From positions 1 to 18,357 of IMG/VR virus record IMGVR_UViG_2597489893_000006: 18,357 nt of DNA, one strand, 5' to 3'. Shown in pieces: positions 551 through 18,357 of this stretch. The position numbers were made by a program, and so were the translations under genes. The notes below the pieces were generated by a model. It was given only the letters and a program-made list of their open reading frames with translations, searched no databases and was not told where the DNA came from. The stretch is from a virus. Taxonomy: Duplodnaviria; Heunggongvirae; Uroviricota; Caudoviricetes. Within the stretch, counting starts at the first letter, position 1. Each line of letters begins with the position of its first letter.

Positions 551-574
551 ATTATAGCAATCAATTAGAGCAAT
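551..574 (-). promoter_or_regulatory. C1-operator-like 17-mer overlapping a perfect -10 TATAAT reading toward ref
   Basis: Positions 558-574 match the reverse complement of the C1 operator consensus ATTGCTCTAATAAATTT at 14/17. Minus-strand TATAAT lies at 551-556 immediately downstream. Confidence 0.45.
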
Positions 575-635
575 TAAAGTTATTTGTTTATCGCGAATCA
601 CATTTTTTCACTTCAGTACCTGTGTACTATACTCC

Positions 636-706
636 TTCTTGATTGATTGAATGCGGAATACAAACCCGCTTTTTTGTGCAGCCTGGCTCCTTGCCAGGCT
701 TTTTTT
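636..706 (+). ncRNA. Candidate small RNA unit (promoter-like -35 TTTTCA / -10 TATACT at 605-633, tandem intrinsic terminators at 652-675 and 680-706)
   Basis: Plus-strand TTTTCA, 17-nt spacer, TATACT. Downstream hairpin AGCCTGGC-TCCTT-GCCAGGCT followed by T7. A weaker GCGG..CCGC hairpin plus T6 sits just upstream. The unit is convergent with the 3' end of the minus-strand ORF 705-1016. Confidence 0.25.
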
Positions 707-1016
707 ATTTCAGCATGGAAGCTGTTAACGCTTTGGACCTTGCTGAACTGATTGAAAGGGCTTTGTCAACGTGCCCCAAAAATTCGCCAAACTCGGCCAT
801 CACTTTGGCAAAACCGCGCCGTGCTTCTTTCTCGGTGGCATTCATCACGAAATGTTCAGCACTACGCATACTTTTGACAGGGAACGCAACGGATATTGAG
901 TCAATATCAGGCATTCTATCGCTCAGCTTTACAGTGACAATGACGGCTGGCGACTGAATATTAGTGCTTACAGACAGCACTACATATTTTCCGTCGATGT
1001 TGAAATCCTTTCTCAC
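705..1016 (-). CDS. Hypothetical protein, 103 aa, immediately downstream of cre (position of P1 cra)
   Basis: Minus-strand ORF co-oriented with cre and ref; GGTGA Shine-Dalgarno-like sequence 2 nt upstream of the ATG. The overlapping plus-strand ORF 643-957 starts with TTG and contains the terminator, so the minus-strand frame is preferred. Confidence 0.45.
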   Translation of the reverse strand: MRKDFNIDGKYVVLSVSTNIQSPAVIVTVKLSDRMPDIDSISVAFPVKSMRSAEHFVMNATEKEARRGFAKVMAEFGEFLGHVDKALSISSARSKALTASMLK

Positions 1017-1032
1017 ATGTCACCATAAATAC

Positions 1033-1049
1033 CAAAGAATTAGAGCAAT
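1033..1049 (-). promoter_or_regulatory. C1-operator-like 17-mer between the cre stop and the downstream ORF
   Basis: caaagaattagagcaat matches the reverse complement of the operator consensus at 13/17, including the TTAGAGCAAT core. Confidence 0.35.
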
Positions 1050-1066
1050 CATTTGCGCGCTAATGG

Positions 1067-2098
1067 CTAATAGCCATCTTCCAGCAGGCGCACCATTGCC
1101 CCTGTTTCACTATCCAGGTTACGGATATAGTTCATGACAATATTTACGTTGGTCCAGCCACCAGCTTGCATGATCTCCGGTATTGAAACTCCGGCGCGGG
1201 CCATATCTCGCGCGGCTCCGACACGGGCACTGTGTCCAGACCAGGCCAGGTACCTCTGGCCAGAGTCATCCTTAGCCCCGAAAATCAATCGGTGAGTTGC
1301 TTCAAAAATCCCTTCCAGGGCGCGAGTTGATAGCTGGCTGGTGGCAGATGGCGCGGCAACACCATTTTTTCTGACACGGCAAAACAAGTAGTTATTCGGA
1401 TCATCAGCCACACCAGAGACAGAAATCCATCGCTCAACCAGTTTAGTTACCCCCAGACTAAGTGCCTTCTCTACACCAGCGGTGCTAACCAGCGTTTTCG
1501 TTCTGCCAATATGGATTAACATTCTCCCACCGTCAGTACGTGAGATATCTTTAACTCTGATCCTAGAAATTTCGGCTATACGTAACAGGGTGTTATAAGC
1601 AATCCCCAGAAATGCCAGATTACGTATATCCTGGCAGCGATCGCTATTTTCCATGAGTGAACGAACCTGGTCGAAATCAGTGCGTTCGAACGCCAGCGCC
1701 TGTTTTGCACGCTCACCGGCATCAACGTTTTCTTTTCGGATCCGTCGCATGACGAGTGAAACAGCATTGCTGTCACTTGGTCGTTGCAGCCCGGACCGAC
1801 GATGAAGCATATTTAGCTGGCCCAAATGTTGCTGGATAGTTTTCACTGCCAGACCGCGCGCCTGAAGATATAGAAGATAATCGCGAACATCTTCAGGTTC
1901 TGCGGGAAACCATTTCCGGTTATTCAACTTGCACCATGCCGCCCATGACCGGCAAACGGACAGAAGCATTTTCCAGGTATGCTCAGAAAACGCCTGGCGA
2001 TCCCTGAACATATCCATCAGGTTCTTGCGAACCTCATCACTCGTTGCATCGACCGGCAATGCAGGCAAATTTTGGTGTACGGTCAGTAAATTGGACAT
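1067..2098 (-). CDS. cre: Cre tyrosine site-specific recombinase
   Basis: 343-aa translation MSNLLTVHQNLPALPVDATSDEVRKNLMDMFRDRQAFSEH... through ...GWTNVNIVMNYIRNLDSETGAMVRLLEDGY is near-identical to P1 Cre as I recall it, including the catalytic Tyr in the MNYIR motif. Canonical loxP lies 435 bp upstream. Confidence 0.97.
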   Translation of the reverse strand: MSNLLTVHQNLPALPVDATSDEVRKNLMDMFRDRQAFSEHTWKMLLSVCRSWAAWCKLNNRKWFPAEPEDVRDYLLYLQARGLAVKTIQQHLGQLNMLHRRSGLQRPSDSNAVSLVMRRIRKENVDAGERAKQALAFERTDFDQVRSLMENSDRCQDIRNLAFLGIAYNTLLRIAEISRIRVKDISRTDGGRMLIHIGRTKTLVSTAGVEKALSLGVTKLVERWISVSGVADDPNNYLFCRVRKNGVAAPSATSQLSTRALEGIFEATHRLIFGAKDDSGQRYLAWSGHSARVGAARDMARAGVSIPEIMQAGGWTNVNIVMNYIRNLDSETGAMVRLLEDGY

Positions 2099-2105
2099 TT
2101 GACAC

Positions 2106-2327
2106 TCAGATAATGGTTTTAAGTAAAGTGTACAGGATCGGCTCTGCCTTTACCTGTTTATGGTTCTCGTCATAGAAACGCCAACGACCGCGACTGCGTT
2201 CTATCTTTTCTTCACCGCGCGATAATGACAGTTGACAACTATCACGATCAAACCCTTTTGCCCGCCAGTAACCACGATTTTTCTCAAGCTCAAGATGAGT
2301 GGACACTTTAGCAGCTGAATATCCCAT
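2106..2327 (-). CDS. Possible small basic protein (73 aa) ending 8 nt upstream of the cre ATG
   Basis: ATG preceded by GAGGTG two nt upstream; stop TGA 8 nt before the cre start, so translational coupling is possible. No recognisable domain. Confidence 0.25.
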   Translation of the reverse strand: MGYSAAKVSTHLELEKNRGYWRAKGFDRDSCQLSLSRGEEKIERSRGRWRFYDENHKQVKAEPILYTLLKTII

Positions 2328-2357
2328 TTTTCACCTCTGATTGATTGGTGGTGCTAA

Positions 2358-2420
2358 GTGCGCTACGCGAAATCTGGAGCACAAACACTGCCAACATTTC
2401 GCAGATTTTACGTAGCGCAA
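2358..2420. repeat. Imperfect 19-bp inverted repeat (dyad symmetry) in the cre upstream region
   Basis: GTGCGCTACGCGAAATCTG at 2358-2376 and CAGATTTTACGTAGCGCAA at 2402-2420 are complementary at 16/19, with a 25-nt spacer. Confidence 0.4.
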
Positions 2421-2422
2421 CC

Positions 2423-2497
2423 TTGATCAAATGATCAAGTGATCACTATTTGACCTGATAAGGTATTGAACTGTATGGATTTACAGGTAAATTGATC
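2423..2497. promoter_or_regulatory. Cluster of four GATC (Dam) sites, including three tandem TGATCA hexamers, between cre and loxP
   Basis: TTGATCAAATGATCAAGTGATCAC at 2423-2446 plus TTGATCATG at 2492-2499. P1 cre transcription is known to be Dam-sensitive. Confidence 0.45.
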
Positions 2498-2516
2498 ATG
2501 TTCAATAACCCTTAAG

Positions 2517-2550
2517 ATAACTTCGTATAATGTATGCTATACGAAGTTAT
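2517..2550. other. loxP: loxP recombination site
   Basis: Exact ATAACTTCGTATA-ATGTATGC-TATACGAAGTTAT: 13-bp inverted repeats flanking the 8-bp asymmetric spacer. Confidence 0.98.
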
Positions 2551-2593
2551 TAGGTCTGAAGAGGAGTTTACGTCCAGCTGCGCATAAAAATCA

Positions 2594-2610
2594 AGAATTA
2601 TTAGAGCAAT
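2594..2610 (-). promoter_or_regulatory. C1 operator (reverse orientation) upstream of coi-c1
   Basis: agaattattagagcaat matches the reverse complement of the operator consensus at 15/17. Confidence 0.6.
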
Positions 2611-2670
2611 AAATTTTGAGAGAAAAATCCCACTCCACCAGCCAAAAACTGGATTGTTTTTCATAGTTGT

Positions 2671-2697
2671 TTGACAATTGCTCTAATAAATTATAGT
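2671..2697 (+). promoter_or_regulatory. Rightward promoter (-35 TTGACA, -10-like TATAGT) with an embedded C1 operator, directed at coi-c1
   Basis: TTGACA at 2671-2676 is followed directly by ATTGCTCTAATAAATTA at 2677-2693 (16/17 to consensus), overlapping TATAGT. Confidence 0.6.
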
Positions 2698-2931
2698 TTT
2701 GCCGCCGTTTCGTAATACAACTTTGGATTCACTATTTAATGTGTCTTCAGCGTTGTAGAGCGGCTCAGAAGGAAATGAGCAAACAGGGAAACCTTATACA
2801 ACGGCATTACAGCTATGCATTGCTCATCTTACACACAGCGCAATGTTGTAGGATTACCCCAGCATGGATCATGGGTGAAACAGTAGGTCAGAGCTTCAGG
2901 CTCTGTGTTGTCAATACAGTGAGGCATAATT

Positions 2932-3141
2932 ATGGCTTTCATTCCACCAACCATCGACGACGTTAGACATTGCTCTAACGCTTTATCTGTAGACCCCGCC
3001 GAAACCGACGCTGCCCGCGCCATTGCTGAACACTACTCAAAGATATCCAATCAGGAGTACCGCATCACCCAAGACGACCTGGATGATCTCACTGACACAA
3101 TCGAATATCTCATGGCCACTAACCAGCCAGACTCACAATAA
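2932..3141 (+). CDS. coi: Coi, C1 inactivator
   Basis: 69-aa ORF immediately upstream of and co-oriented with c1, size and position as in P1; acidic C-terminus. Confidence 0.8.
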   Translation: MAFIPPTIDDVRHCSNALSVDPAETDAARAIAEHYSKISNQEYRITQDDLDDLTDTIEYLMATNQPDSQ

Positions 3142-3157
3142 ATGCACTAATAAATCT
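3141..3157 (+). promoter_or_regulatory. C1-operator-like 17-mer in the coi-c1 intergenic region
   Basis: aatgcactaataaatct matches the consensus at 14/17; sits at the coi stop codon. Confidence 0.45.
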
Positions 3158-3186
3158 ATTATTTTCGTTGGATCCTTCTATAATGG

Positions 3187-3229
3187 TGGCCAACAACTCC
3201 CAGTGTAATCCGCTGTGAGTTGTTGGCCA
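3187..3229 (+). promoter_or_regulatory. Perfect 13-bp inverted repeat (stem-loop) 10 nt upstream of the c1 Shine-Dalgarno
   Basis: TGGCCAACAACTC at 3187-3199 and GAGTTGTTGGCCA at 3217-3229 with a 17-nt loop; no downstream U-tract. Confidence 0.4.
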
Positions 3230-3251
3230 TGTCAATTCTGGAGGAGGATCA

Positions 3252-4103
3252 ATGATAAATTATGTCTACGGCGAACAACTGTACCAGGAGTTCGTCAGCT
3301 TCAGGGATCTCTTTCTAAAAAAAGCTGTTGCACGCGCCCAACACGTTGATGCCGCCAGCGACGGTCGTCCTGTTCGCCCGGTTGTCGTTCTGCCGTTCAA
3401 AGAAACGGACAGCATTCAGGCTGAAATTGATAAATGGACTTTAATGGCGCGGGAACTGGAACAGTACCCAGACCTCAATATCCCAAAGACTATTTTATAT
3501 CCAGTGCCTAACATCCTTCGCGGTGTGCGTAAGGTTACAACTTATCAGACAGAAGCTGTGAACAGCGTCAACATGACCGCTGGCCGCATTATTCATCTGA
3601 TTGATAAGGACATTCGCATCCAGAAAAGCGCGGGGATCAATGAGCACAGTGCGAAATACATAGAGAACCTGGAAGCAACAAAAGAGCTAATGAAGCAGTA
3701 CCCGGAGGATGAAAAATTCCGTATGCGTGTACACGGCTTTAGCGAAACAATGTTGCGCGTCCATTACATTTCCAGTAGCCCTAACTACAATGATGGTAAA
3801 TCAGTTAGTTACCATGTGCCGCTGTGTGGTGTGTTTATCTGCGATGAAACTCTCCGTGATGGAATCATCATCAACGGTGAATTCGAGAAAGCAAAATTTA
3901 GCCTTTATGACTCTATAGAACCGATCATCTGCGACCGCTGGCCGCAGGCAAAAATATATCGCCTGGCAGATATTGAAAATGTAAAAAAACAAATTGCCAT
4001 CACTCGCGAAGAGAAAAAGGTCAAATCAGCCGCATCAGTTACGCGCAGCCGTAAAACTAAGAAGGGGCAGCCAGTAAACAGCAACCCCGAAAGCGCGCAA
4101 TAG
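3252..4103 (+). CDS. c1: C1 repressor of lysis (primary immunity repressor)
   Basis: 283-aa ORF with strong GGAGGAGG Shine-Dalgarno; length, position next to coi and the operator sites fit P1 C1. Confidence 0.93.
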   Translation: MINYVYGEQLYQEFVSFRDLFLKKAVARAQHVDAASDGRPVRPVVVLPFKETDSIQAEIDKWTLMARELEQYPDLNIPKTILYPVPNILRGVRKVTTYQTEAVNSVNMTAGRIIHLIDKDIRIQKSAGINEHSAKYIENLEATKELMKQYPEDEKFRMRVHGFSETMLRVHYISSSPNYNDGKSVSYHVPLCGVFICDETLRDGIIINGEFEKAKFSLYDSIEPIICDRWPQAKIYRLADIENVKKQIAITREEKKVKSAASVTRSRKTKKGQPVNSNPESAQ

Positions 4104-4128
4104 TTTTCCATCCGGCATGGTCAAATTG

Positions 4129-5613
4129 TTATTCATTAAGCCATGCCAGAGCTTCATCAACCTGCGCTTCGTCTTCGACGCTAAGCACTTCATCTTGGGG
4201 AACATAGTTCGCCAACATAGCGAAACAATATGTATCCCAATGGTCCGGTGAGTGCAGGTTGAGTTTTTTCTTCATATCTTCCTTTGACATCACCTTCCAT
4301 TGACCTGCGGAATTTATCCCTACCGGTATCTTTGATGCTTCCTCTATAGTCGCAGCCCCCTTATCAAGCCGCATACGCCCTGATTTTACAGCTTCTGCCG
4401 CCTGAATATTCGCGAAAGCGCGCATATCGAAATAAAGGCTTTTATCTTCACGGCTGTGCATCTTTTTACCCCAGCGGATACGCTGGACGGTAATGCCATA
4501 GCGTTCGTACATTAGATCAGCCGTCGATTTCCCCAAGCCATCGCCATCAATAGCTATGGTTATGTTCGGGAACCGTTCTGGGTTACATTCTGCGAAAATC
4601 TTGGCGGCTAACTGCGTTTCTGTAACGTCTGTGTATTCCAGCATACGATAGTTGATTACACGGCGTTTATTTCGCTGGCCGGACACCATCATGATATTAA
4701 TAACGGACTTATCTCGTCCTGTGCCACCAGCAACGTCAACACATGCAACCCAGCCCCATCCTTTGGCAATCTTGACCTTTCGCCGCGTCGCCCGCTCAAC
4801 CTCATCACGACCAAGAAGAAAGCCATCTTGAGATTTGGGAAATTCACCACGTACTTTGATCATGTACATGGGGTTATCACGACCGCCATACTCCGCAAGT
4901 TTTGCTCGTATAAATTTTGCATCTACAAGCGGAGATTCTTCACTATTCAGTATTATCGCAGTAAACAATCCATCAGGATTTCCCGGGCGAATAGCTAGTC
5001 TGTGGTGTGAATCGTAGAAATAGCCTGAAGGTCGCGTAGGCTGGGAAAGAAGCAGAATACGGTTATCCTTACCGGTCAGCGCACCTGTTATCACACTGAA
5101 TGCTTTATCACTCACACCCGACGCTTCGTCGATGATATACAAGAGATGATCGGCGTGTTCACCAGCCAACGCCTCCTCATTTCCGGGGCGACAGGACTTT
5201 ATCAATATTGTCCAAACACCCTTGCCAGTCACCTCAAAAAAAGACGTTTCTGTAAGAATGAAATACTTCGACAACCACGGGAATCTGCTAACAGCAGTAG
5301 CCCAATTGCTCTTTATGTATTTGAAAATACCATCAAGGACTTGCTGTCTTTTGTTAGCGACCAGAATGACGCGAGCGCCGGGGAAAAACATGATGAAGAG
5401 TATTGCAATGATACTCGTCATATCCGATTTACCAGTACCATGGCCGGAGGTCACACTTGTCCAACTGCCGTCCTGCTGCGTGGACTCAATGATCTCATCC
5501 TGCTGCCAGGTTGGTGTCTTCCCAAACAACACATCAGCGGCCGCAATCCAGTCATAACGATATAGCGCCACAAGCTCGCGCCAACGTGGGTCCGTTACGC
5601 AACTTCTGGCCAT
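4129..5613 (-). CDS. pacB: PacB, terminase large subunit
   Basis: 494-aa ORF with a Walker-A-like SGHGTGKS motif; start overlaps the pacA stop (TAATG); convergent with c1. Confidence 0.9.
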
Positions 5614-6806
5614 TAATCATCATCCCCGTACAGTTTGCGGGTAACTTCTTCGTCTTCCTCCTCGTCTTCGTCCAGATCCTGTTCAAGCCATGCTTCGTTT
5701 GATATGCCTTCCGCATCGACATCACCATAACCACCTGTATCGACGATATCGGCAATTTCTTCTCTACGATGCTCAATCCACAATGCCGCATCAGCGCGGC
5801 GGCTGGCGGCCCGTTCTCGCGCGATTTTATCCAGATCTTCAAGTGATGGAGCGCCAGATGCTGTTTGGTTTTCCTCATCATCGGTATTGGTCTTAGGAGC
5901 ACGCAGATCGGCTTTGATTTGCTCCAGCATCAGGGGCGGCACTTTTCCTCCATGCGCCTCGATGAATTCAGCCGCTTCCAGCACTGACCAGTTATTTTCA
6001 CGCTTTCGTTCGTATGCCAGCTTAACAATGCCAGCTTGCCCCATAGACAAAGCGTGCTTTTCCGCCTCCCGGCTTTCTTTTCGATAGTTATTCCGGATGC
6101 TGTAAATGGTGTTGATCAGGCTGCTTATCTGCGCGGAACAGCTGTTTAGCATGCTCGCGATACGGTATTCAGGCGGAGTACCTTCATCATCGTCTTTTTG
6201 CTGATCGCGCATTTCCTGCACCAGGCGAATACACGTATCCCTGGCGTTCTCCAGCATAAGGAGATGAGAAAGAGACTTTTCCAGAAGAGTGGTTTCCAGA
6301 ACATCGGCCCCGGACCGACGCAACATAGCGCGCGCGGCCTTCCGCGCTTCAACGTTATCTATCAGGTAATCGCCAGCTTCGAATTCAAAGCGTTCACCAT
6401 CATCATCCAGGGTGTCGCGTTCCAGGCGATCACGTAAGGTCCGGTGGGCGCGGGTGATCACGTCATGATCATCTGAACGATCATTTATGCGCTTATTTTG
6501 GCGCTTCGCATTATCGACTGCGGCACTGACAACGGCATTAACTCTTTGTTTTTCATCCATTTCAGCCACAACGTGATCACCTGCACGTTGATCATTAGCG
6601 TGATCAATGATCATGCTTTTTAGTGGTTTCCTGACAGGCTTATTTGGCTTACGGCTGTCCGCTGTTCCGGTGTCTTCTTTGAATGCACGGAGATAACGAC
6701 GTGCGGTGTTTGGGTTGAGATTAAACTCGGCGGCATATTGTGCGATGGTGTAACCACCATCTCGCGCCAGGCGAGCAAAATTCTTCTTGTGATCGTCCCA
6801 GGTCAC
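5613..6806 (-). CDS. pacA: PacA, terminase small subunit / pac-recognition protein
   Basis: 397-aa ORF with an acidic C-terminal tail; contains the GATC-hexamer pac site within its coding sequence, as in P1. Confidence 0.9.
6427..6614. other. pac: pac packaging site: two clusters of TGATCA(G/C)-type hexamers flanking an ~90-bp region
   Basis: Cluster 1 at 6427-6484 (cGATCAc, TGATCAC, TGATCAT, cGATCAt) and cluster 2 at 6574-6613 (TGATCAC, TGATCAT, TGATCAA, TGATCAT); eight GATC sites in under 190 bp inside pacA. Confidence 0.8.
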
Positions 6807-6892
6807 TTATGCTTCCTTTCGTATAAAACTCTTTTTGACGCGAGGGTAACGAAAGTCACATGTCAAAAGGCCCGGAACGGGCAAGCAATCAA

Positions 6893-7345
6893 TCAGATAC
6901 GTGCGGATGTGGCATTACCGTAATGACGGTGCTGACGGACCACCTTATTGAAAAATTGACGCGCCATTACCCAAGGCTGGTGCTCCCGGCGTTCCTTTTC
7001 GTCCTGCGTCATATAGAGTTCGTTCTGGAGTTTTTCATCAAACCGGCGCGGAGCGCGACTGCGGCGAAAGAATTCAGGATTCAGAGAGTGGATCTGAAAT
7101 CTACGTGGGCGTGTACTGTCATCAATCAAAACAGACGAATACTTAGACACAGCGATAGCCTTTAAGCGCAGATAAACATCGCGCTTATCGACATCCAGAT
7201 GCGGGTATTCCTTTTCAAGAATTGCTGCGAGTTCTTTCGCTGATAGAAGAGATTTAGTGCGGATCATGTAATCCGCAATCTCGTACGATGTTATTCGTGA
7301 GTGATTTATTTCCATGAAGTGGCGTCCCTGCCAGTTAAGTAACAT
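6893..7345 (-). CDS. lpa: Lpa, late promoter activator
   Basis: 150-aa ORF between pacA and a C1-operator-containing promoter, matching P1 order; AGGTGA Shine-Dalgarno 4 nt upstream of the ATG. Confidence 0.75.
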   Translation of the reverse strand: MLLNWQGRHFMEINHSRITSYEIADYMIRTKSLLSAKELAAILEKEYPHLDVDKRDVYLRLKAIAVSKYSSVLIDDSTRPRRFQIHSLNPEFFRRSRAPRRFDEKLQNELYMTQDEKERREHQPWVMARQFFNKVVRQHRHYGNATSARI

Positions 7346-7415
7346 CCTGTCACCTACTGATTAGCCCATGTCAACTAATCAACGTCGAATATAATACCCT
7401 CGATTAAAGAAATAG

Positions 7416-7432
7416 CAATACATTAGAGCAAT
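7416..7432 (-). promoter_or_regulatory. C1 operator within the lpa promoter region
   Basis: caatacattagagcaat matches the reverse complement of the consensus at 14/17. On the minus strand it is followed by TTGCTA, 17 nt, TATTAT, then the lpa ribosome-binding site. Confidence 0.55.
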
Positions 7433-9466: not shown

Positions 9467-10501
9467 ATGAAAATGACAAGTATTCAACAACGTGCAGAGC
9501 TTCATCGTCAAATCTGGCAAATTGCTAACGATGTCAGGGGTTCGGTCGATGGATGGGATTTTAAGCAATACGTTCTGGGCGCACTTTTCTACCGTTTTAT
9601 CAGCGAAAATTTTTCCAGTTATATTGAAGCCGGTGATGACAGTATCTGTTATGCGAAACTGGATGACAGCGTAATTACTGATGACATTAAAGACGATGCC
9701 ATCAAAACTAAAGGCTACTTCATCTACCCCAGTCAGCTTTTCTGCAACGTAGCTGCGAAAGCAAATACCAATGACAGACTGAACGCAGATTTAAACAGCA
9801 TCTTCGTTGCTATCGAAAGTTCTGCTTACGGCTACCCTTCAGAAGCAGACATCAAAGGTTTGTTTGCTGATTTCGATACCACCAGTAACCGCCTGGGTAA
9901 CACCGTTAAAGATAAAAATGCCCGCCTGGCTGCGGTTCTGAAAGGGGTTGAAGGGTTAAAACTTGGTGACTTCAACGAACATCAGATTGACCTGTTCGGT
10001 GATGCCTATGAGTTCCTGATTTCTAACTATGCGGCAAATGCCGGTAAGTCAGGCGGTGAGTTCTTTACACCGCAGCACGTCTCCAAGCTGATTGCACAAC
10101 TGGCTATGCACGGGCAGACCAACGTTAACAAAATCTACGACCCGGCAGCGGGTTCCGGCTCACTGTTGTTGCAGGCTAAAAAGCAGTTTGATAACCATAT
10201 CATCGAAGAAGGCTTTTTTGGTCAGGAAATCAACCATACAACCTATAACCTGGCACGTATGAACATGTTTTTGCACAACATCAACTACGACAAGTTTGAT
10301 ATCAAGCTGGGTAATACACTGACTGAGCCACACTTCAGAGATGAAAAACCGTTTGATGCCATCGTTTCTAACCCGCCGTATTCGGTGAAATGGATTGGCA
10401 GCGATGACCCGACGCTGATTAACGATGAACGTTTTGCCCCGGCTGGCGTCCTGGCCCCCAAATCCAAAGCTGACTTTGCGTTTGTACTACATGCGCTGAA
10501 C
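9467..10501 (+). pseudogene. hsdM: hsdM (Type IC methyltransferase), 5' fragment of 345 codons, truncated by IS903
   Basis: Translation carries the AdoMet motif [10 protein letters not shown] and the N6-adenine motif NPPY. The reading frame runs into the IS903 inverted repeat and stops after 4 IS-encoded codons (GFVE-stop). Confidence 0.9.
10493..10501. repeat. IS903 target-site duplication, left copy (GCGCTGAAC)
   Basis: Identical 9-mer found at 11559-11567 directly flanking the other inverted repeat. Confidence 0.9.
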
Positions 10502-11558
10502 GGCTTTGTTGAATAAATCAGATTTCGGGTAAGTCTCCCCCGTAGCGGGTTGTGTTTTCAGGCAATACGCACGCTTTCAGGCATACCTGCTTTCGTCATT
10601 TTGTTCAGCGCTCGTACCAGGGCCATAGCCTCTGCAACCTGACCATCGTAGTCACGCAGTGTCAGTGAACCCCCGAACAGCTGTTTTACCCGGTACATCG
10701 CCGTTTCCGCTATCGAGCGACGGTTGTAATCTGTTGTCCATTTCCACCGCGCATTACTCCCGGTCATTCGCTGATTAGCCACTGCACGGTTACGGTCTGC
10801 ATATTCACCGGGCCAGTAACCCGCACCTTTTCGGGGTGGGATAAGCGCGCTGATTTTCTTACGCCGCAGTTCATCGTGACATAGCCGGGTATCGTAAGCG
10901 CCATCGGCGGCGGCTGACCTGATTTTCCGGTGGGTTTGCCGGATTAACCCGGGGAAGGCCTCTGAGTCCGTAACGTTGTTCAGCGACAGGTCAGCGCAGA
11001 TGATTTCATGTGTTTTACTGTCAACGGCGAGATGCAGCTTACGCCAGATACGGCGGCGTTCCTGGCCATGCTTTTTGACTTTCCACTCGCCTTCACCGAA
11101 GACCTTCAGCCCGGTGGAATCAATTACCAGGTGTGCGATTTCACCCCGGGTGGGCGTTTTGAAACTGACATTAACCGACTTTGCCCGCCTGCTGACACAG
11201 CTGTAATCCGGGCAGCGTAGCGGAACGTTCATCAGAGAAAAAATGGAATCAATAAAGCCCTGCGCAGCGCGCAGGGTCAGCCTGAATACGCGTTTAATGA
11301 CCAGCACAGTCGTGATGGCAAGGTCAGAATAGCGCTGAGGTCTGCCTCGTGAAGAAGGTGTTGCTGACTCATACCAGGCCTGAATAGCTTCATCATCCAG
11401 CCAGAAAGTTATGGAGCCACGGTTGATGAGGGCTTTATTGTAGGTGGGCCAGTTGGTGATTTTGAACTTTTGCTTTGCCACGGAACGGTCTGCGTTGTCG
11501 GGAAGATACGTGATCTGATCCTTCAACTCAGCAAAAGTTCGATTTATTCAACAAAGCC
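10502..11558 (-). mobile_element. IS903 (IS5 family, IS903 group), complete 1057-bp copy
   Basis: Perfect 18-bp terminal inverted repeats GGCTTTGTTGAATAAATC (10502-10519) and GATTTATTCAACAAAGCC (11541-11558); length 1057 bp; 9-bp direct duplication on both sides; transposase ORF inside. Confidence 0.95.
10558..11481 (-). CDS. IS903 transposase (DDE), 307 aa from a GTG start
   Basis: Translation ...AKQKFKITNWPTYNKALINRGSITFWLDDEAIQAWYE... matches IS903/IS102 transposase as I recall it. The ORF track's 322-aa form begins at an upstream TTG. Confidence 0.88.
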   Translation of the reverse strand: MAKQKFKITNWPTYNKALINRGSITFWLDDEAIQAWYESATPSSRGRPQRYSDLAITTVLVIKRVFRLTLRAAQGFIDSIFSLMNVPLRCPDYSCVSRRAKSVNVSFKTPTRGEIAHLVIDSTGLKVFGEGEWKVKKHGQERRRIWRKLHLAVDSKTHEIICADLSLNNVTDSEAFPGLIRQTHRKIRSAAADGAYDTRLCHDELRRKKISALIPPRKGAGYWPGEYADRNRAVANQRMTGSNARWKWTTDYNRRSIAETAMYRVKQLFGGSLTLRDYDGQVAEAMALVRALNKMTKAGMPESVRIA

Positions 11559-11567: not shown

Positions 11568-12095
11568 TATCTTTCGGCCAAAGGTCGTGCTGCGATTGTC
11601 TGCTTCCCGGGTATTTTTTACCGTGGCGGCGCGGAGCAGAAAATCCGTCAGTATCTGGTCGATAATAACTATGTCGAAACCGTGATTTCACTGGCACCGA
11701 ACCTGTTCTTTGGCACCACTATTGCTGTAAACATTCTGGTGCTGTCTAAACATAAAACGGATACCAAAGTTCAGTTTATTGATGCCAGCGAACTGTTCAA
11801 AAAAGAAACCAACAACAATATCCTGACCGATGCCCATATCGAACAGATTATGCAGGTATTTGCCAGCAAGGAAGATGTTGCTCATCTGGCGAAATCTGTT
11901 GCGTTTGAGACTGTTGTCGCGAATGACTATAACCTGTCGGTGAGCAGCTATGTGGAAGCGAAAGATAACCGCGAAATTATCGATATCGGTGAGCTGAATG
12001 CAGAGCTGAAAACCACGGTCAGCAAAATCGACCAGTTGCGTAAAGATATTGATGCAATTGTGGCTGAAATTGAAGGCTGCGAGGTGCAGAAATGA
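11559..12095 (+). pseudogene. hsdM: hsdM 3' fragment (C-terminal 175 codons plus the duplicated ALN codons)
   Basis: Frame continues from the duplicated GCG CTG AAC into [49 protein letters not shown]... Removing the IS and one duplication copy restores a 520-codon ORF (the 1066-bp insertion is a +1 frame shift, which matches the observed frames). Confidence 0.9.
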
Positions 12096-13418: not shown

Positions 13419-16400
13419 ATGACTCATCAGACACACACCATTGCTGAATCCAATAACTTTATCGTTCTTGATAAGTACATCAAAGCTGAGCCAACAGGCG
13501 ACAGCTACCAGAGCGAATCGGACCTGGAACGTGAACTGATTCAGGACCTGCAAAATCAGGGTTATGAATTTATTTCCGTAAAATCACAGTCGGCAATGCT
13601 GTCCAATGTTCGGGAACAGCTTCAGAGCCTCAATGGTGTGATGTTTAATGACAGCGAGTGGCGGCGCTTCACGGAGCAGTATCTGGACAACCCCAGCGAT
13701 GGTATTCTGGATAAAACCCGTAAAATCCATATCGACTATATCTGCGACTTTATTTTTGATGACGGGCGACTTGAGAACATCTATTTGATAGATAAAAAGA
13801 ATCTCATGCGCAATAAGGTGCAGATTATCCAGCAGTTTGAACAGACGGGTTCTCATGCTAACCGTTATGACGTCACGATCCTGGTTAATGGTTTACCGCT
13901 GGTGCAAATCGAACTAAAAAAACGCGGGGTGGCGATTCGTGAGGCTTTCAACCAGATACATCGTTACAGTAAAGAGAGTTTTAACAGCGAAAATTCCCTG
14001 TTTAAGTATCTGCAACTGTTTGTCATTTCTAACGGCACCGATACCCGTTATTTTGCCAACACGACAAAGCGCGATAAAAACAGTTTTGACTTCACCATGA
14101 ATTGGGCGAAATCAGACAACACGCTGATTAAAGACCTCAAAGACTTTACCGCTACCTTTTTCCAGAAACATACTCTGCTGAATGTTCTGGTGAACTACAG
14201 CGTTTTTGACAGTAGTCAGACGCTACTGGTGATGCGACCGTACCAGATTGCCGCCACCGAGCGCATTCTGTGGAAAATTAAGAGTTCCTTTACAGCGAAG
14301 AACTGGTCAAAACCGGAAAGCGGTGGGTATATCTGGCACACTACCGGTTCTGGTAAAACCCTCACCAGCTTTAAAGCCGCGCGTCTGGCAACAGAGCTGG
14401 ACTTTATTGATAAAGTCTTCTTTGTGGTCGACAGGAAAGACCTCGATTACCAGACCATGAAGGAATATCAGCGTTTTTCGCCAGACAGCGTCAACGGCTC
14501 GGAAAATACCGCAGGCCTTAAACGAAATCTGGATAAGGACGATAACAAAATTATCGTCACTACTATTCAGAAACTCAATAACCTGATGAAAGCAGAAAGC
14601 GACCTGCCTGTATATAATCAGCAAGTGGTGTTTATATTTGATGAATGCCACCGCAGCCAGTTTGGAGAAGCGCAGAAAAACCTGAAGAAGAAATTCAAAC
14701 GCTATTATCAGTTTGGTTTTACCGGCACACCTATTTTCCCGGAAAACGCCTTAGGCTCAGAAACGACCGCCAGCGTATTTGGTCGTGAATTGCATTCGTA
14801 TGTAATTACCGATGCGATTCGTGATGAAAAAGTGCTCAAATTCAAGGTGGACTACAACGATGTGCGGCCACAGTTTAAGTCTTTAGAGACAGAAACTGAC
14901 GAGAAAAAACTAAGTGCGGCTGAAAATCAGCAGGCGTTTCTTCATCCCATGCGTATACAGGAAATTACGCAATATATTCTGAATAACTTCCGCCAGAAGA
15001 CGCACCGTACTTTCCCTGGCGCAAAAGGTTTTAATGCTATGTTGGCAGTGAGCAGCGTGGATGCTGCAAAAGCCTATTACGCGGCGTTTAAACGGTTACA
15101 AGAGGAAGCCGCTAATAAATCTGCAACTTATAAACCGCTGCGTGTTGCGACAATCTTCTCCTTTGCCGCTAATGAAGAACAAAATGCCATTGGTGAAATT
15201 TCCGATGAAACTTTTGATACCAGCGCAATGGACAGCAGTGCTAAAGAGTTTCTTGACGCTGCAATTCGTGAGTATAACAGCTATTTTAAAACTAACTTCA
15301 GCACCGACGGTAACGGTTTTCAGAACTACTATCGCGATTTAGCCCAACGGGTTAAAAATCAGGATATCGATCTGTTAATTGTCGTTGGGATGTTTTTAAC
15401 CGGCTTCGACGCTCCAACATTGAACACGCTATTCGTCGATAAAAACTTGCGTTTTCACGGCCTGATGCAGGCATTTTCCCGCACCAACCGCATTTATAAC
15501 GCCACTAAAACCTTCGGTAACATTGTCACTTTTCGGGATCTGGAACGCTCAACCATTGATGCCATAACGCTGTTTGGTGATAAAAATACCAAAAATGTGG
15601 TGTTAGAAAAGAGTTATGCAGAGTATATGGAAGGTTTTACTGATGCTGCCACCGGTGAAGCCAAACGCGGCTTTATGGCAGTAGTTTCAGAACTGGAACA
15701 ACGGTTCCCTGACCCTGCCAGTATTGAAAGTGAAAAAGAGAAGAAAGACTTCGTTAAACTGTTTGGCGAATACCTGCGTGCCGAGAACATCCTGCAAAAC
15801 TATGATGAATTTGCCACGCTAAAAGCCCTGCAACAAATCGATCTTAGCGATCCTGTTGCGGTAGAAAAATTCAAAGCAGAACATTATGTGGATGATGAAA
15901 AGTTCGCTGAATTGCAAACAATTCGTCTCCCTGCTGATCGCAAGATTCAGGATTATCGTTCTGCCTATAACGATATTCGCGACTGGCAGCGCCGTGAGAA
16001 AGAAGCTGAGAAAAAAGAGAAATCAACCACTGACTGGGATGACGTGGTTTTTGAGGTCGATTTGCTGAAGTCTCAGGAAATAAACCTGGATTATATCCTT
16101 GGACTGATTTTCGAACACAACAGACAAAATAAAGGCAAGGGCGAAATGATCGAAGAGGTCAAACGCTTAATTCGTTCAAGCCTGGGGAACCGGGCGAAAG
16201 AGGGCCTGGTGGTCGATTTTATTCAGCAAACGAACCTGGATGATTTACCAGACAAAGCCAGTATCATTGAGGCATTCTTTACGTTTGCTCAACGCGAACA
16301 GCAACGTGAAGCAGAAGCATTGATAAAAGAAGAAAATCTCAATGAAGATGCAGCAAAACGCTATATTCGCACGTCTTTAAAACGCGAATACGCCACCGAA

Positions 16401-16535
16401 AATGGCACAGAATTAAACGAAACATTACCAAAACTTAGTCCGTTGAATCCGCAATATAAAACGAAAAAACAGGCAGTTTTCCAGAAAATCGTCTCGTTTA
16501 TTGAGAAGTTTAAAGGCGTAGGCGGAAAAATATAG
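13419..16535 (+). CDS. hsdR: HsdR, Type IC restriction endonuclease/translocase subunit
   Basis: 1038 aa with an N-terminal PD-(D/E)xK-like nuclease motif (D...IELKK), Walker A TGSGKT and a DECH box ([10 protein letters not shown]); length equals EcoR124I HsdR. Confidence 0.93.
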
Positions 16536-16550
16536 CCCAATTCGTGTTTT

Positions 16551-16580
16551 TCTTGCGGGTTCTTAATTAAACCCGCAAGA
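16551..16580. repeat. Perfect 10-bp inverted repeat hairpin 16 nt after the hsdR stop, without a 3' U-tract
   Basis: TCTTGCGGGT (16551-16560) and ACCCGCAAGA (16571-16580) with a 10-nt loop. Confidence 0.4.
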
Positions 16581-16614
16581 GCTCGTGGGGTTCCAAATGG
16601 CTAATATACTCCCC

Positions 16615-16701
16615 TTACCCATGCGCGACGATGCCGTCAAAAGTGATAGAGAACAGCCAGAAATAGATCGCGGCCATAATGATTTTGAATGCCGTGTTCA
16701 T
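16615..16701 (-). CDS. Candidate small hydrophobic peptide, 28 aa (MNTAFKIIMAAIYFWLFSITFDGIVAHG)
   Basis: ATG preceded by AGGAG with an 8-nt spacer; one predicted transmembrane-like segment. Lies antisense between the hsdR stop and the plus-strand terminator, downstream of a C1-operator-like site. Confidence 0.3.
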   Translation of the reverse strand: MNTAFKIIMAAIYFWLFSITFDGIVAHG

Positions 16702-16727
16702 ATTTTCAGCTCCTGTGATTGATTGGA

Positions 16728-16761
16728 AACATGCCGCGCCTTGCGGCATGTTTTTATTTTT
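16728..16761 (+). terminator. Rho-independent terminator (plus-strand orientation)
   Basis: AACATGCCGC-GCCTT-GCGGCATGTT (10-bp stem) followed by TTTTTATTTTT. Confidence 0.7.
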
Positions 16762-16783
16762 ACTTTCTCTGTTTTAAAAATCA

Positions 16784-16800
16784 AGATTTATTAGAACAAT
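16784..16800 (-). promoter_or_regulatory. C1-operator-like 17-mer abutting the stop codon of the HAD-like gene
   Basis: agatttattagaacaat matches the reverse complement of the consensus at 15/17. It shares the extended context AAAAATCAAGA with the operator at 2594-2610. Confidence 0.5.
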
Positions 16801-17306
16801 TATTGTTGATGAAGAAGCGCATTTTCATACTCCCTGACCATTAATGTAAGTACGCCATGACTCCTGAACACACGCGCCACTTCAATCTTATCTTCCAGCG
16901 CGAACGCAATTTTACTTAGACCAATTTTCTTCAGGAGATCAATCTTTGCTGGACCGTCATTTCTGTCATCGGTGGCAGGACGCATAGATAGCAAAGGCTC
17001 AGCCCCGTTTGTTACGTACTTCCGCAGCCAGGCTCGTGTTTTATCCCTTGCGATCTCACAGCGCCCGGTTACAAACCAGACCGTGTAAACGTTAAATAAC
17101 TGGCGCACCATATCAATAACTGGAGTGATGGGAGCATCAGTGTCACAGGCAAGGTTAAACTCGTTCCAGTGCTCTGTTAATGCACCTTTGCCAGGTGGTG
17201 GAAGTAAATGCAGCCTGTCTTCCGTTGCCTCTGATATCGTCCCATCAATATCTACTATGACGATGTACGGACGTTCCTGGTGTGCGTGTTTATTGAAAAT
17301 ACTCAA
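16800..17306 (-). CDS. HAD-superfamily phosphatase-like protein (DxDGT motif), 168 aa
   Basis: N-terminal IVIVDIDGTISE matches HAD motif I (as in polynucleotide kinase 3'-phosphatase domains and other HAD enzymes). Start is TTG preceded by GAGGAGGG. Confidence 0.6.
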   Translation of the reverse strand: MSIFNKHAHQERPYIVIVDIDGTISEATEDRLHLLPPPGKGALTEHWNEFNLACDTDAPITPVIDMVRQLFNVYTVWFVTGRCEIARDKTRAWLRKYVTNGAEPLLSMRPATDDRNDGPAKIDLLKKIGLSKIAFALEDKIEVARVFRSHGVLTLMVREYENALLHQQ

Positions 17307-17325
17307 ATGCCCTCCTCATTGGACG

Positions 17326-17358
17326 AAAAAAATGCTGGTGGGAGCACTCCACCAGCAT
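17326..17358 (-). terminator. Rho-independent terminator (minus strand) after the coiled-coil protein gene
   Basis: Minus strand reads ATGCTGGTGG-AGTGCTC-CCACCAGCAT followed by TTTTTTT. Confidence 0.65.
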
Positions 17359-17378
17359 TAAAAGTGACACTGTAACTA

Positions 17379-18356
17379 TCAGCGAACGTAAATAGTGCCG
17401 CCGTTCTCTTTTTCCCATGCATCGCTACGTGCATAGCAAACATCGAGAAGTCTTCTTGCCGCAGTTTCCTCTAAACCCAATTCGACAACCAACTGCTCAT
17501 GACGGCGGGTAACCACATCAAACAGGGTATGCAGCCCTTTAGTTGCCAGATCATCAATGAATTCCGGTTCGAACGGCAGCTCTGCATCTGCCAACATAAC
17601 CTCTTGCGCCCACTCAACTCGACGGACCAATTCCGGGCGGCGGCTTTCCATCTCTTTACAGATCAATTCATGGAAGAACTCTACCCAACCTTCCGGCTGA
17701 AACTCGCGGAAAATTGCCAACGGCTGGAAGTTTGGCATCAACCATTCGTTGATTCGGATATCAATGGCATAGCCCATGTCGCAGCAGAACTGATAAGCAA
17801 AGTCCAGCTTAGAAACGATATAAGGACGCTCGTTATTGAACTCTTTAGGCGATGAGATCCCATAAGCCAGGAGGCGCGGGAAGAAGGAGATTTGCCCTAA
17901 CGTCGGATGAAGTTTGCTTGCAGGGAAACGGCGCTCAGTAATGCCATACATTTCCTTCTTGAGCGTCGCAAATTTGGCATTCTCATTAACCAGCGCGGTA
18001 ACCTCTGCTTTTTTATTAGCAAATGCCACGCGCGCCTCGCTTGCATCTTTAATAGTTTTTTTGAGCTGTTGGTTAAGGTCGGCGACCTGCTTACGCAGTT
18101 CCTGTCGCTCGCTTTTAGCTTTGTTATAGCGTTTCTCAAGGTTAAAAGGATCAAGTTTCATGATCTCTTTATATTGAGATTTTAGCGTTGAAATCTGTGA
18201 GTTCCGCAGTTCAACCATCGCGGTCATTTCATTGAGTTTTGTTTCCAGCTCAATGCTTATACGTTCGGCATTATCAGCACGCTGGTTGGAGTCATGCGTC
18301 GCATCGTCGATCGCGTCCTGTTGCTGGTGACCTGCCCCCACGATTAGATACAACAC
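17379..18356 (-). CDS. Hypothetical protein with predicted coiled-coil region and C-terminal globular domain; 5' end beyond the window
   Basis: Open frame with no stop up to the window edge. About 100 residues of heptad-like Lys/Glu/Leu-rich sequence (ELETKLNEMTAMVELRNSQISTLKSQYKE...KQVADLNQQLKK...) are followed by a mixed hydrophobic/aromatic domain; no recognised catalytic motif. Confidence 0.55.
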   Translation of the reverse strand: MLYLIVGAGHQQQDAIDDATHDSNQRADNAERISIELETKLNEMTAMVELRNSQISTLKSQYKEIMKLDPFNLEKRYNKAKSERQELRKQVADLNQQLKKTIKDASEARVAFANKKAEVTALVNENAKFATLKKEMYGITERRFPASKLHPTLGQISFFPRLLAYGISSPKEFNNERPYIVSKLDFAYQFCCDMGYAIDIRINEWLMPNFQPLAIFREFQPEGWVEFFHELICKEMESRRPELVRRVEWAQEVMLADAELPFEPEFIDDLATKGLHTLFDVVTRRHEQLVVELGLEETAARRLLDVCYARSDAWEKENGGTIYVR

Positions 18357-18357
18357 T

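Follow-up and report, generated by a model that had tools for sequence, protein, structure and literature searches.

Positions 16,611–18,327 of the 18,357 bp stretch of DNA analysed here (the window) showed 97–99% nucleotide identity to 19 P1-like phages, P1 and P7 included, and on this alignment the locus is the pmgS–pap segment of a P1-like phage-plasmid, with two already catalogued genes, both on the minus strand. The account that we consider probable is that Pap is a 3′-phosphatase of the T4 Pnkp type, that PmgS is unrelated to it, and that pmgS and pap do not work as one functional unit. Both genes were named and given predicted functions in the 2004 P1 annotation, and public records carry them as "PmgS-like" and "3′-phosphatase"; in P7, PmgS goes under the name ShtB. 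An earlier note on this DNA had described the two ORFs as being of unassigned function, which is true experimentally but overlooks these names and predictions.

The features of the region, listed by coordinate, were as follows.

13,419–16,535, plus strand: hsdR of a Type IC restriction–modification (R-M) cassette, given as context outside the pair (full-length EcoR124I HsdR match).
16,615–16,701, minus strand: conserved hydrophobic ORF of 28 amino acids, MNTAFKIIMAAIYFWLFSITFDGIVAHG, with an AGGAG ribosome-binding site (alignment of the window, P1 and phi456).
16,756–16,799, minus strand: region homologous to the P1pmgT and P2pmgT promoters (P1 annotation transferred through the alignment; homology only).
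16,784–16,800, minus strand: C1 repressor operator-like site ATTGTTCTAATAAATCT (OpmgT of P1, previously called Op88) that overlaps the stop codon of pap.
16,800–17,306, minus strand: pap, a predicted stand-alone HAD (DxDxT) phosphatase of 168 amino acids with a TTG start, orthologue of P1 Pap (P1_gp094).
17,310–17,317, minus strand: Shine–Dalgarno sequence of pap, GAGGAGGG, 3 nt upstream of the TTG start (direct reading of the sequence).
17,321–17,359, minus strand: intrinsic terminator after pmgS (terminator scan and RNAfold).
17,379–18,327, minus strand: 3′ part only of pmgS, residues ~105–420 of the 420 amino acid PmgS of P1 (P1_gp093).
18,328–18,357, no strand assigned: terminal 30 nt of ISSen4 (IS3 family), interrupting pmgS.

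The nucleotide identity of pmgS to that of P1 was 98–99% and the amino acid identity of Pap to P1 Pap was 97.6%. The window Pap differed from the commonest Pap variant at four residues, all of them non-catalytic. The order pmgS, terminator, pap, Op88 was common to the window and P1, and in the GenBank feature table of P1, which was the source of the P1 regulatory features, pmgR precedes pmgS. The position of pmgS and pap between pmgR and the Op88 operator was therefore conserved relative to P1, as expected of orthologues. The pmgR gene itself lies outside the window. Several elements of the earlier description were borne out by this layout: the HAD-like ORF was present on the minus strand at 16,800–17,306 with the motif I IVIVDIDGT, its strong ribosome-binding site GAGGAGGG lay 3 nt before the start codon, and an intrinsic terminator of −18.1 kcal/mol separated the two ORFs. 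The large coiled-coil ORF was also present, running from 17,379 to the end of the window, but it is incomplete, as homology to P1 ended at 18,327.

Folding with RNAfold gave the terminator, read from 17,359 to 17,331, an 11 bp stem and a 7 nt loop followed by a T run, with a free energy of −18.1 kcal/mol. As no promoter fits between this terminator and the start codon of pap, transcripts covering pap would start at the C1-repressed pmgR promoter and run past the pmgS terminator; the strength of the terminator upstream of pap counts against such read-through. The C1 site ATTGTTCTAATAAATCT has two mismatches to the consensus and is one of seven such sites in the window, against 0.11 expected by chance. 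A C1 operator at the 3′-end of the HAD gene had been reported in the earlier note, and the site is indeed there; in the alignment of the window, P1 and phi456 it coincided with the annotated OpmgT/Op88 of P1, where it serves the next operon (pmgT) and not pap. The region homologous to P1pmgT and P2pmgT likewise reads away from pap, and in the window too the operator would control the pmgT promoters rather than pap.

Homology to P1 ended at 18,327 bp in all of the P1-like matches, ~105 codons into pmgS, and the 30-mer from 18,328 bp to 18,357 bp was 100% identical to the ends of ISSen4 in 591 plasmids. The first ~105 codons of the P1 gene are missing here through this insertion, by which pmgS is predicted to be inactivated in the window. 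The hsdM gene of the adjacent cassette was also split by an IS. With pmgS and hsdM both broken, activity of PmgS or of the R-M system should not be assumed for this element. The hsdR product gave a full-length match to EcoR124I HsdR (2w00; 2277 bits).

The 3′ side of pap differed from P1, as the Type IC hsd cassette stood in place of pmgT..humD; the same arrangement was found in phi456 and vB_EcoM-673R5. The block pmgT..humD, replaced here, corresponds to a documented variable region of P1-like plasmids (variable region H, PMC9603915), and pap adjoins the R-M genes simply because the cassette sits in this slot. The functional tie between the pair and the cassette that had been suggested is not upheld, since pap lies at the same place in P1, where pmgT stands instead of hsd. 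For the window little is changed by the analysis: pmgS and pap were already in the P1 catalogue, and a known variable slot explains their R-M neighbour. The P1 annotation carries notes on the flanks of EcoDXXI and R124/3.

Analysis of the translated pap sequence indicated that Pap is a small stand-alone DxDxT (HAD) enzyme homologous to the C-terminal 3′-phosphatase domain of T4 Pnkp. The likeness to polynucleotide kinase 3′-phosphatase domains had been proposed from motif I, and Pfam, profile searches, Foldseek and the alignment of catalytic residues all agreed with it. Pap matched the Pfam family PF25109 (HAD_PNKP) with 45.3 bits (cut-off 27.6), every full-length Pap homologue carried a precomputed PF25109 assignment, and matches were found to PHROG 415 and PHROG 505 ("polynucleotide kinase"); NCBIfam models and PADLOC defence models gave no match to Pap. 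A search of the PDB with the single Pap sequence was swamped by a de novo TIM-barrel artefact, so a family profile of 11 homologues was used instead. The best real PDB proteins found by this profile were Pnkp1 (E 2e-6) and T4 Pnkp (E 5e-6 and 4e-5), represented by entries 4xrp, 5uj0 and 1ltq. The T4 phosphatase domain, used as a tblastn query, found pap in P1 with an E-value of 4e-5.

The AF2 model of Pap was made up of alternating strands and helices around a Rossmann-like core (pLDDT 70–88). Overall the model was moderate (pLDDT 66.7), with residues 22–58 unreliable (pLDDT <50), because the word-indexed homologue search that was used for both Pap and PmgS reached only relatives at least 56% identical. 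Foldseek with this model ranked 5uj0, 4xrp and 2ia5 first (the T4 Pnkp phosphatase and Pnkp1), and all 26 matches at E ≤ 1e-3 were HAD-fold proteins.

Motif I of Pap (D19-I-D21-G-T23), which follows the hydrophobic strand IVIV, did not vary among the homologues or in T4 Pnkp, and motifs II–IV (T80 in VTGR, K121 and E138-D139) aligned with S211, K258 and D277-D278 of T4 Pnkp. Residues D19, D21, G22, T23, G81, R82, D113, R115, D117, K121 and D139 were invariant across Pap, the T1-like proteins, K1H and T4 Pnkp. Besides the HAD motifs, Arg176, Arg213 and Asp254 of T4 Pnkp are known from mutagenesis to be needed for 3′-phosphatase activity. In the alignment D19, D21, R82, D117, K121 and D139 of Pap corresponded to D165, D167, R213, D254, K258 and D278 of T4 Pnkp and T80 to S211; catalytic roles for D165, D167, S211, K258 and D278 have been described (PMC3592404), D165 being the nucleophile and D167 the acid/base. 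The counterpart of Arg176 was ambiguous: it is either R31, which is invariant, or K40, as Pap has an insertion at this point and the model there is of low confidence. This conserved insert of ~20 residues after motif I (RLHLLPPPGKG...W.EFN.A) is missing from T4 Pnkp and could redirect the specificity of Pap.

The two proteins share the DxDxT acylphosphatase fold and equivalent catalytic residues (T4 Pnkp is encoded by pseT; 5uj0, 1ltq, 2ia5) at an identity of ~21–27%, but T4 Pnkp has an N-terminal kinase domain and works with an RNA ligase. Pap, at 168 amino acids, consists of the phosphatase domain only, with none of the P-loop 5′-kinase of a bifunctional Pnkp. With the K1H P-loop protein and the kinase domain of T4 Pnkp as queries, tblastn against the whole P1 genome and the window detected no Pnkp-type kinase (best E 1.8), and the P1 gene list shows no ligase partner for Pap. 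Pnkp1 (4xrp), from the bacterial Pnkp1-Rnl-Hen1 RNA repair system, was the top profile match of Pap and carries a HAD phosphatase module belonging to Pap's subfamily; it is a 312 amino acid kinase-phosphatase complexed with a ligase and a methyltransferase, whereas Pap is the phosphatase module alone. Closer relatives are the stand-alone "polynucleotide kinase" proteins (PHROG 415) of T1-like (Drexlerviridae) and Kagunavirus phages, which belong to Pap's family and showed 35–41% identity over the full length, equal size and the RLHLLP insert. In these phages a separate kinase-like P-loop gene adjoins the phosphatase gene or lies ~1 kb away, which amounts to a split Pnkp, whereas P1 has the phosphatase only. 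K1H and a T1-like phage each encode, near the Pap-like gene, a stand-alone P-loop protein related to the kinase domain of T4 Pnkp (E 9e-7). As Pap is phosphatase-only and no kinase was detected in P1, the label "3′-phosphatase, 5′-polynucleotide kinase" over-states what it is; this widespread label is wrong for its many phage relatives too, which are likewise phosphatase-only, the kinase of T1-like and Kagunavirus phages being a separate gene.

That the two ORFs make up an undescribed module, as had been put forward, did not hold. They are P1 pmgS and pap at 97–99% identity, annotated in many records, and they are not co-inherited: relatives of PmgS were found in 27 phage records versus 1124 for Pap. 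In D6, phiARM81mr and Vibrio phage 1F273_PE002 the 5 kb on either side of the PmgS-like gene contained no Pap homologue, and conservation of the pair beyond P1 was rejected. PmgS is unrelated to Pap and rarer, and the pair is no functional unit, given these very different distributions and the intrinsic terminator that separates the genes. With the Pap family spanning >1100 phage genomes, the function of Pap concerns over a thousand phages.

In the proposed mechanism Asp19 would attack the terminal phosphate monoester to give an aspartyl-phosphate intermediate, with Asp21 as the general acid/base; Thr80 and Lys121 would hold the phosphate, and Asp139 together with Asp19 would bind Mg2+. From homology only, we infer that the substrate is the 3′-phosphate, perhaps also the 2′,3′-cyclic phosphate, of DNA or RNA ends, which would be converted to 3′-OH. 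Since there is no 5′-kinase partner, Pap would carry out end-healing only, and sealing or extension would be left to host enzymes. No published enzyme assay was found in the literature for Pap or any other stand-alone protein of its family. Pap has been shown to be an accessory gene product: CRISPRi and deletion data found both pmgS and pap to be non-essential for lytic growth (PMC10695390), and 24 of 29 pmg/upf knock-outs had no plating or antirestriction defect (PMC9024508).

Pap might instead act on a small molecule, for example as a 3′- or 5′-(deoxy)nucleotidase tuning nucleotide pools or as an enzyme destroying a phosphorylated metabolite or signal. We regard this as unlikely, although it is the alternative to which we would give most weight. 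It fits the original label of "putative acid phosphatase", and nucleotidases are frequent among HAD enzymes of this size; Pap had a weak Pfam match to class B acid phosphatase (E 0.028), and class C acid phosphatases, HisB-N and MDP-1 were among the lower Foldseek matches. The absence of a kinase partner is compatible with it, and the family-specific insert after motif I could function as a small cap if the substrate is a small molecule. In the T4-like Krischvirus JEP8 the Pap-like gene directly follows nrdAB and overlaps the end of nrdB, an adjacency that fits a role in nucleotide metabolism equally well. Against this, sequence, profile and structure matches consistently favoured the phosphatase domains of T4 Pnkp and Pnkp1 over any nucleotidase, and the conserved R82 and D117 align with Arg213 and Asp254, both essential in T4. 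Furthermore, the Pap-like protein of K1H and T1-like phages sits with the Pnkp-kinase-like P-loop protein and an SbcD-like exonuclease, which is a context of nucleic acid ends.

The earlier note had also raised counter-defence, in which Pap, alone or with PmgS, would heal tRNAs cleaved by PrrC or another anticodon nuclease, mirroring T4 Pnkp and Rnl1. In its favour, the homology of Pap to the phosphatase domain of T4 Pnkp is genuine, the cassette adjoining pap is of Type IC, and a Type IC locus is where PrrC, which T4 counters, is encoded (PMC3874165). P1 also encodes its own tRNA genes, and pap is dispensable on laboratory hosts, as would be expected of a counter-defence gene. We nevertheless hold this idea to be highly improbable. 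The T4 pathway needs a 5′-kinase and an RNA ligase, and neither was in evidence, with no Pnkp-type kinase detected by tblastn in P1 or the window and no gene annotated as ligase or kinase in the P1 gene list. RNA that has been 3′-dephosphorylated is not repairable by the host ligase RtcB, so removal of the 3′-phosphate would block rather than help this route and the benefit of Pap to RNA repair is not obvious. No prrC was found in the window, where all large ORFs were accounted for and the hsd locus read hsdM::IS, hsdS, hsdR with no extra ORF. The pap gene was at the same position in 19/19 P1-like phage matches and the hsd junction in only 2/19; the cassette, moreover, shares its element with pap and is broken by an IS. 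The knock-out library showed no change in antirestriction (PMC9024508). The extra ORFs of the phi456 hsd locus were considered as candidates for a PrrC-like gene and rejected, being an IS5-type transposase and an hsdS fragment. Only general papers were found in the literature on anti-defence roles of phage polynucleotide kinases or phosphatases. A broader proposal, doubtful in our view, is that the Pap family are stand-alone polynucleotide 3′-phosphatases acting as a one-enzyme counter to host nucleases or toxins that leave 3′-phosphate or cyclic-phosphate DNA or RNA ends, P1 having kept only this half of a split Pnkp; PmgS, independently of this, would be an early DNA-binding protein with a coiled coil and an (HhH)2 domain, and its head-morphogenesis label would be wrong.

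PmgS matched PHROG 1660 (E 1e-152). The AF2 model of the full-length protein had a near-continuous helix over residues 40–232 and a confident C-terminal domain, with a pTM of 0.26 and a conserved middle domain (residues 233–335) at pLDDT <50. A profile of this middle domain gave no match in the PDB, and Foldseek with the whole model returned nothing at E <1e-3, its matches being to the C-terminal domain only. Matches to HHH_5, HHH or RNA_pol_A_CTD were found in distant members of the family (HHH_5 in 4/16, best E 8e-7). The PDB profile matches of the family were to the HhH modules of Brr2, the Rad51 N-terminal domain, NusA-AR and alpha-CTD, those to the Rad51/RadA N-terminal domain, NusA AR1/AR2 and RNA polymerase alpha-CTD having E-values of 5e-6 to 1e-4. 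The C-terminal domain superposed on such modules with an rmsd of 1.4–1.8 Å over 50–61 residues, and on the RAD51C N-terminal domain with a TM-score of 0.79 (rmsd 1.7 Å). These data show the C-terminus to be, at family level, an (HhH)2 nucleic-acid-binding-type domain, a five-helix module with two hairpins. Unlike known (HhH)2 modules it is fused to a ~200-residue coiled coil and a conserved middle domain. The GIG hairpin was retained in most distant relatives, but the second hairpin is degenerate in P1 PmgS (ELGLEE instead of KGIG) and so DNA binding by PmgS is not assured. The NCBIfam matches of PmgS were confined to coiled-coil noise (SMC and Rad50 models), and in PADLOC its coiled coil matched nothing but LmuB, and that weakly (E 1e-4).

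Distant PmgS homologues adjoined RecT/exonuclease and methyltransferase genes. Since their surroundings are thus early recombination and methylase genes, the label "head morphogenesis" is open to doubt; PmgS most likely acts early and in association with nucleic acids, not in head assembly. The catalogue names taken at face value, with pmgS serving head morphogenesis or scaffolding and pap having an accessory part in virion assembly, would be the least expected of the readings, and we give them hardly any chance. Such names come from the P1 annotation ("putative morphogenetic function"), from PHROG 1660 ("PmgS-like head morphogenesis") and from the D6 homologue, recorded as a "putative prohead scaffolding protein"; scaffolds typically have long coiled coils, and the upstream pmgR is essential with a head-completion-like phenotype (PMC9024508). 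They conflict with the non-essentiality of pmgS and pap in knock-down and deletion screens, with a pmgS promoter that is C1-repressed and of early rather than late type, and with the (HhH)2 domain, the propagated PmgS label being at odds with all three. The early recombination and methylase surroundings of the distant homologues and the IS disruption of pmgS in the window also speak against them, and PmgS is nowhere mentioned in the main text of the paper on the P1 virion proteome.

Beyond the C1 operator, a family search with the 28 amino acid ORF MNTAFKIIMAAIYFWLFSITFDGIVAHG gave no match. This ORF (16,615 bp–16,701 bp) is the final P1-homologous feature ahead of the hsd cassette, and a strong hairpin (16,724 bp–16,756 bp) lies upstream of it.

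Megablast analysis matched positions 16540-18357 of the window to 19 P1-like phage genomes at 97-99% nucleotide identity, and the corresponding features were annotated as pmgS and pap, which are known, named P1 genes of putative function. The HAD-like open reading frame, the second open reading frame, the terminator, the ribosome-binding site and the C1-operator-like site described in the earlier note were all found to be real, with both open reading frames on the minus strand. The features of the locus, and their order in the P1 RefSeq record, were as follows:

16800-17306, minus strand: pap open reading frame, 168 aa, TTG start, protein beginning MSIFNKHAHQERPYIVIVDIDGT
17379 (end) to the window edge, where it is open, minus strand: second open reading frame (pmgS), from the ORF call
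17359-17331, between both open reading frames: stem-loop AATGCTGGTGG-AGTGCTC-CCACCAGCATT, then TTTTTTT, from the terminator scan
3 nt before the pap TTG start: ribosome-binding site GAGGAGGG, read from the sequence
16784-16800, overlapping the pap stop codon: C1-operator-like 17-mer, 2 mismatches
P1 RefSeq, up to pap: PpmgR with C1 operators Op86a and Op86b, then pmgR, pmgS and pap
P1 RefSeq, after pap: C1 operator OpmgT (Op88) over the last pap codon, then P1pmgT and P2pmgT, then pmgT

The stem-loop had a predicted energy of -18.1 kcal/mol. In P1, PmgS is labelled as 420 aa with a 'coiled-coil domain aa 75-220' and pap as 'putative P1 acid phosphatase'. A C1 operator is indeed present at the 3′-end of pap, but it is not part of pap control; the P1 annotation gives it to the pmgT operon and, as OpmgT is followed by the pmgT promoters, it is the operator of that following operon, whose transcription leads away from pap. 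When the window, P1 and phi456, a P1-like phage with an hsd cassette at the same slot, were aligned, the control region past pap proved to be conserved base-for-base. Seven C1-operator-like sites were found in the window against 0.11 expected by chance, in keeping with the immunity region (c1 and the genes around it) and Olpa that a P1-like element carries; the other six were at 558, 2594, 2677, 3141, 4901 and 7416 (span 558-7432). The pmgT operon leader also encoded a hydrophobic 28-aa open reading frame (MNTAFKIIMAAIYFWLFSITFDGIVAHG; 16615-16701, minus strand) with an AGGAG ribosome-binding site, preceded by a hairpin (16724-16756, -20.7 kcal/mol) with its T run on the opposite strand. This open reading frame, which had no match in PHROG, was present in P1 (unannotated) and phi456, identical bar one codon, and P1 homology stopped directly past its stop codon, at the hsd cassette border.

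Every phage and plasmid match ended at 18327, and the last 30 nt (18328-18357) matched the end of ISSen4, an IS3-family element, at 100% identity in 591 plasmids; pmgS is therefore cut ~105 codons from its start. This cut parts the remaining pmgS fragment and pap from PpmgR, and the pmgS/ISSen4 junction was shared by no PLSDB plasmid. The first 29 nt (1-29) also lay outside the P1-like match and, on the minus strand, begin GGGGTTTGAGGGCCAATG, which may resemble the terminal inverted repeat of a Tn3-family element. Overall, the window has the look of a contig with mobile elements at its borders and scattered inside it.

Pap is probably a dispensable accessory of the C1-controlled early region, and is predicted to be a 3′-phosphatase of the polynucleotide kinase-phosphatase (Pnkp) type without a kinase. 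The similarity to polynucleotide kinase 3′-phosphatases raised in the earlier note was borne out. In Pfam, Pap scored 45.3 bits (cut-off 27.6) with PF25109 (HAD_PNKP, 'Polynucleotide kinase PNKP phosphatase domain'), and it matched PHROGs families 415 and 505, 'polynucleotide kinase'. When an HMM built from 11 Pap homologues was run against solved structures, the best proteins were Pnkp1 of the Pnkp1-Rnl-Hen1 complex (E 2e-6) and the T4 Pnkp phosphatase domain (5e-6, 4e-5). Foldseek with the Pap AF2 model (pLDDT 66.7; core 70-88) placed 5uj0, 4xrp and 2ia5 in the top ranks, and a T4 phosphatase domain query, confirmed as 100% identical to T4 pseT, found P1 pap by plain tblastn at E 4e-5. In an alignment of Pap and T4 Pnkp with Pap relatives as distant as 39% identity, D19, D21, G22, T23, G81, R82, D113, R115, D117, K121 and D139 were invariant. 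Their T4 partners include D165 (nucleophile), D167 (acid/base), R213, D254, K258 and D278 (Mg2+), and T4 S211 aligned with Pap T80; the T4 roles of D165, D167, S211, K258 and D278 are given in PMC3592404. Unlike T4 Pnkp, Pap has no kinase domain and carries a conserved, poorly modelled insert of ~20 residues after motif I (RLHLLPPPGKG...W.EFN.A), which leaves R31 and K40 as the candidate counterparts of T4 Arg176.

Pnkp-type kinase queries found nothing by tblastn in the complete P1 genome or the window (best E 1.8), and the P1 gene list contained no ligase and no kinase. P1 thus holds the phosphatase half alone, and the common label '3'-phosphatase, 5'-polynucleotide kinase' over-states Pap. 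In phage K1H (locus at 2865-5031), the Pap-like gene was flanked by genes for an SbcD-like metallophosphoesterase, which is exonuclease-like, and a 184-aa P-loop protein with 31% identity to the T4 kinase domain over 87 aa (E 9e-7). The T1-like phage G29-2 (3289-3909 and 4847-5359) encoded a 52%-identical homologue of this P-loop protein ~1 kb from its Pap-like gene. A Pap-like gene with a separate T4-kinase-related P-loop gene makes these split Pnkps, the halves of which are often mis-annotated in K1H/T1-like siphophages. In the T4-like Krischvirus JEP8, a stand-alone Pap-like gene (3013-3489) overlapped the end of nrdB, with denA-like and rnlA genes a short distance of a few genes away.

As a Pnkp-type enzyme, Pap would be a Mg2+-dependent phosphatase acting through an aspartyl-phosphate, and would convert 3′-phosphate nucleic-acid ends, possibly cyclic-phosphate ends too, to 3′-OH without a kinase. 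The main alternative, to which we give some weight while thinking it unlikely, is that Pap acts on a mononucleotide or another small molecule, as the family-specific insert and the Pap-like copy beside nrdAB in Krischvirus would favour. That Pap counters the PrrC anticodon nuclease, as the earlier note proposed, is improbable, as this would require a kinase, a ligase and the nuclease: tblastn found no Pnkp-type kinase, the P1 gene list has no ligase, and prrC was found in neither the window nor phi456. The catalogue's reading of the genes as morphogenesis functions is more improbable still. The 'head morphogenesis' label of PmgS is unsupported given that CRISPRi and deletion studies class pmgS as non-essential (PMC10695390; PMC9024508), that PmgS is unmentioned in the main text of the P1 virion proteome paper, and given its early-gene context and C-terminal domain.

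The two genes do not form an undescribed module, nor are they a pair. By tblastn, 1124 phage records had Pap relatives, the bulk of them from Drexlerviridae, Kagunavirus and some T4-like phages, against only 27 for PmgS, and a strong terminator parts pmgS from pap. Their synteny held across the 19 P1-like genomes but not at the PmgS-like genes of D6, phiARM81mr and a Vibrio phage, where no Pap homologue lay within 5 kb. The conserved neighbour in D6 was pmgR, not pap. Distant PmgS homologues sit among early genes: in phiARM81mr the neighbours are exonuclease VIII, RecT, integrase and Dam, and in the Vibrio phage they are YfdP, YfdQ and a methyltransferase.

An AF2 model from the PmgS family alignment had helices at 15-35, 40-160 and 168-232 (pLDDT ~70-87) and a confident C-terminal helical domain (336-415); the middle domain (233-335) was the most conserved sequence stretch, yet gave no usable model. 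Exhaustive phmmer with PmgS 225-420 found just 40 clusters among 1.84 billion cluster representatives, ~20 of them distant full-length proteins (380-470 aa), most with a clear L..KGIG....A..I hairpin. Pfam detected HHH_5 in 4/16 distant relatives (best E 8e-7), HHH in one and RNA_pol_A_CTD in one. A profile of the middle and C-terminal domains matched HhH modules of Brr2, the Rad51 N-terminus, NusA AR and alpha-CTD (E 5e-6 to 1e-4), and the modelled C-terminal domain superposed on the RAD51C N-terminal domain with rmsd 1.7 Å and TM 0.79. A nucleic-acid-associated early role is more likely for PmgS.

The adjacency of pap and pmgS to the R-M cassette is incidental, contrary to the link first suggested: the hsd junction was present in just 2/19 phage matches and pap in 19/19. 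[quoted passage not shown] According to the P1 record, the flanks of the EcoDXXI and R124/3 hsd loci share 96-98% identity with P1, with precisely the same borders, and the order phd-hsd-pap was also found in phi456. In the P1 isolate OP279344.1 (30748-31830), a laboratory derivative, phd directly followed pmgT, with pmgU to humD missing, a further indication that what lies between pap and phd can be exchanged freely. The window HsdR matched EcoR124I HsdR over the full 1038 aa (2277 bits), making the cassette Type IC. Its hsdM was in two pieces (9467-10516 and 11682-12095), split by an IS5-group (DDE_Tnp_1_5) transposase gene (10558-11526, minus strand), and the R-M system is probably inactive. 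The same cassette in phi456 was interrupted by a different IS, within hsdS.
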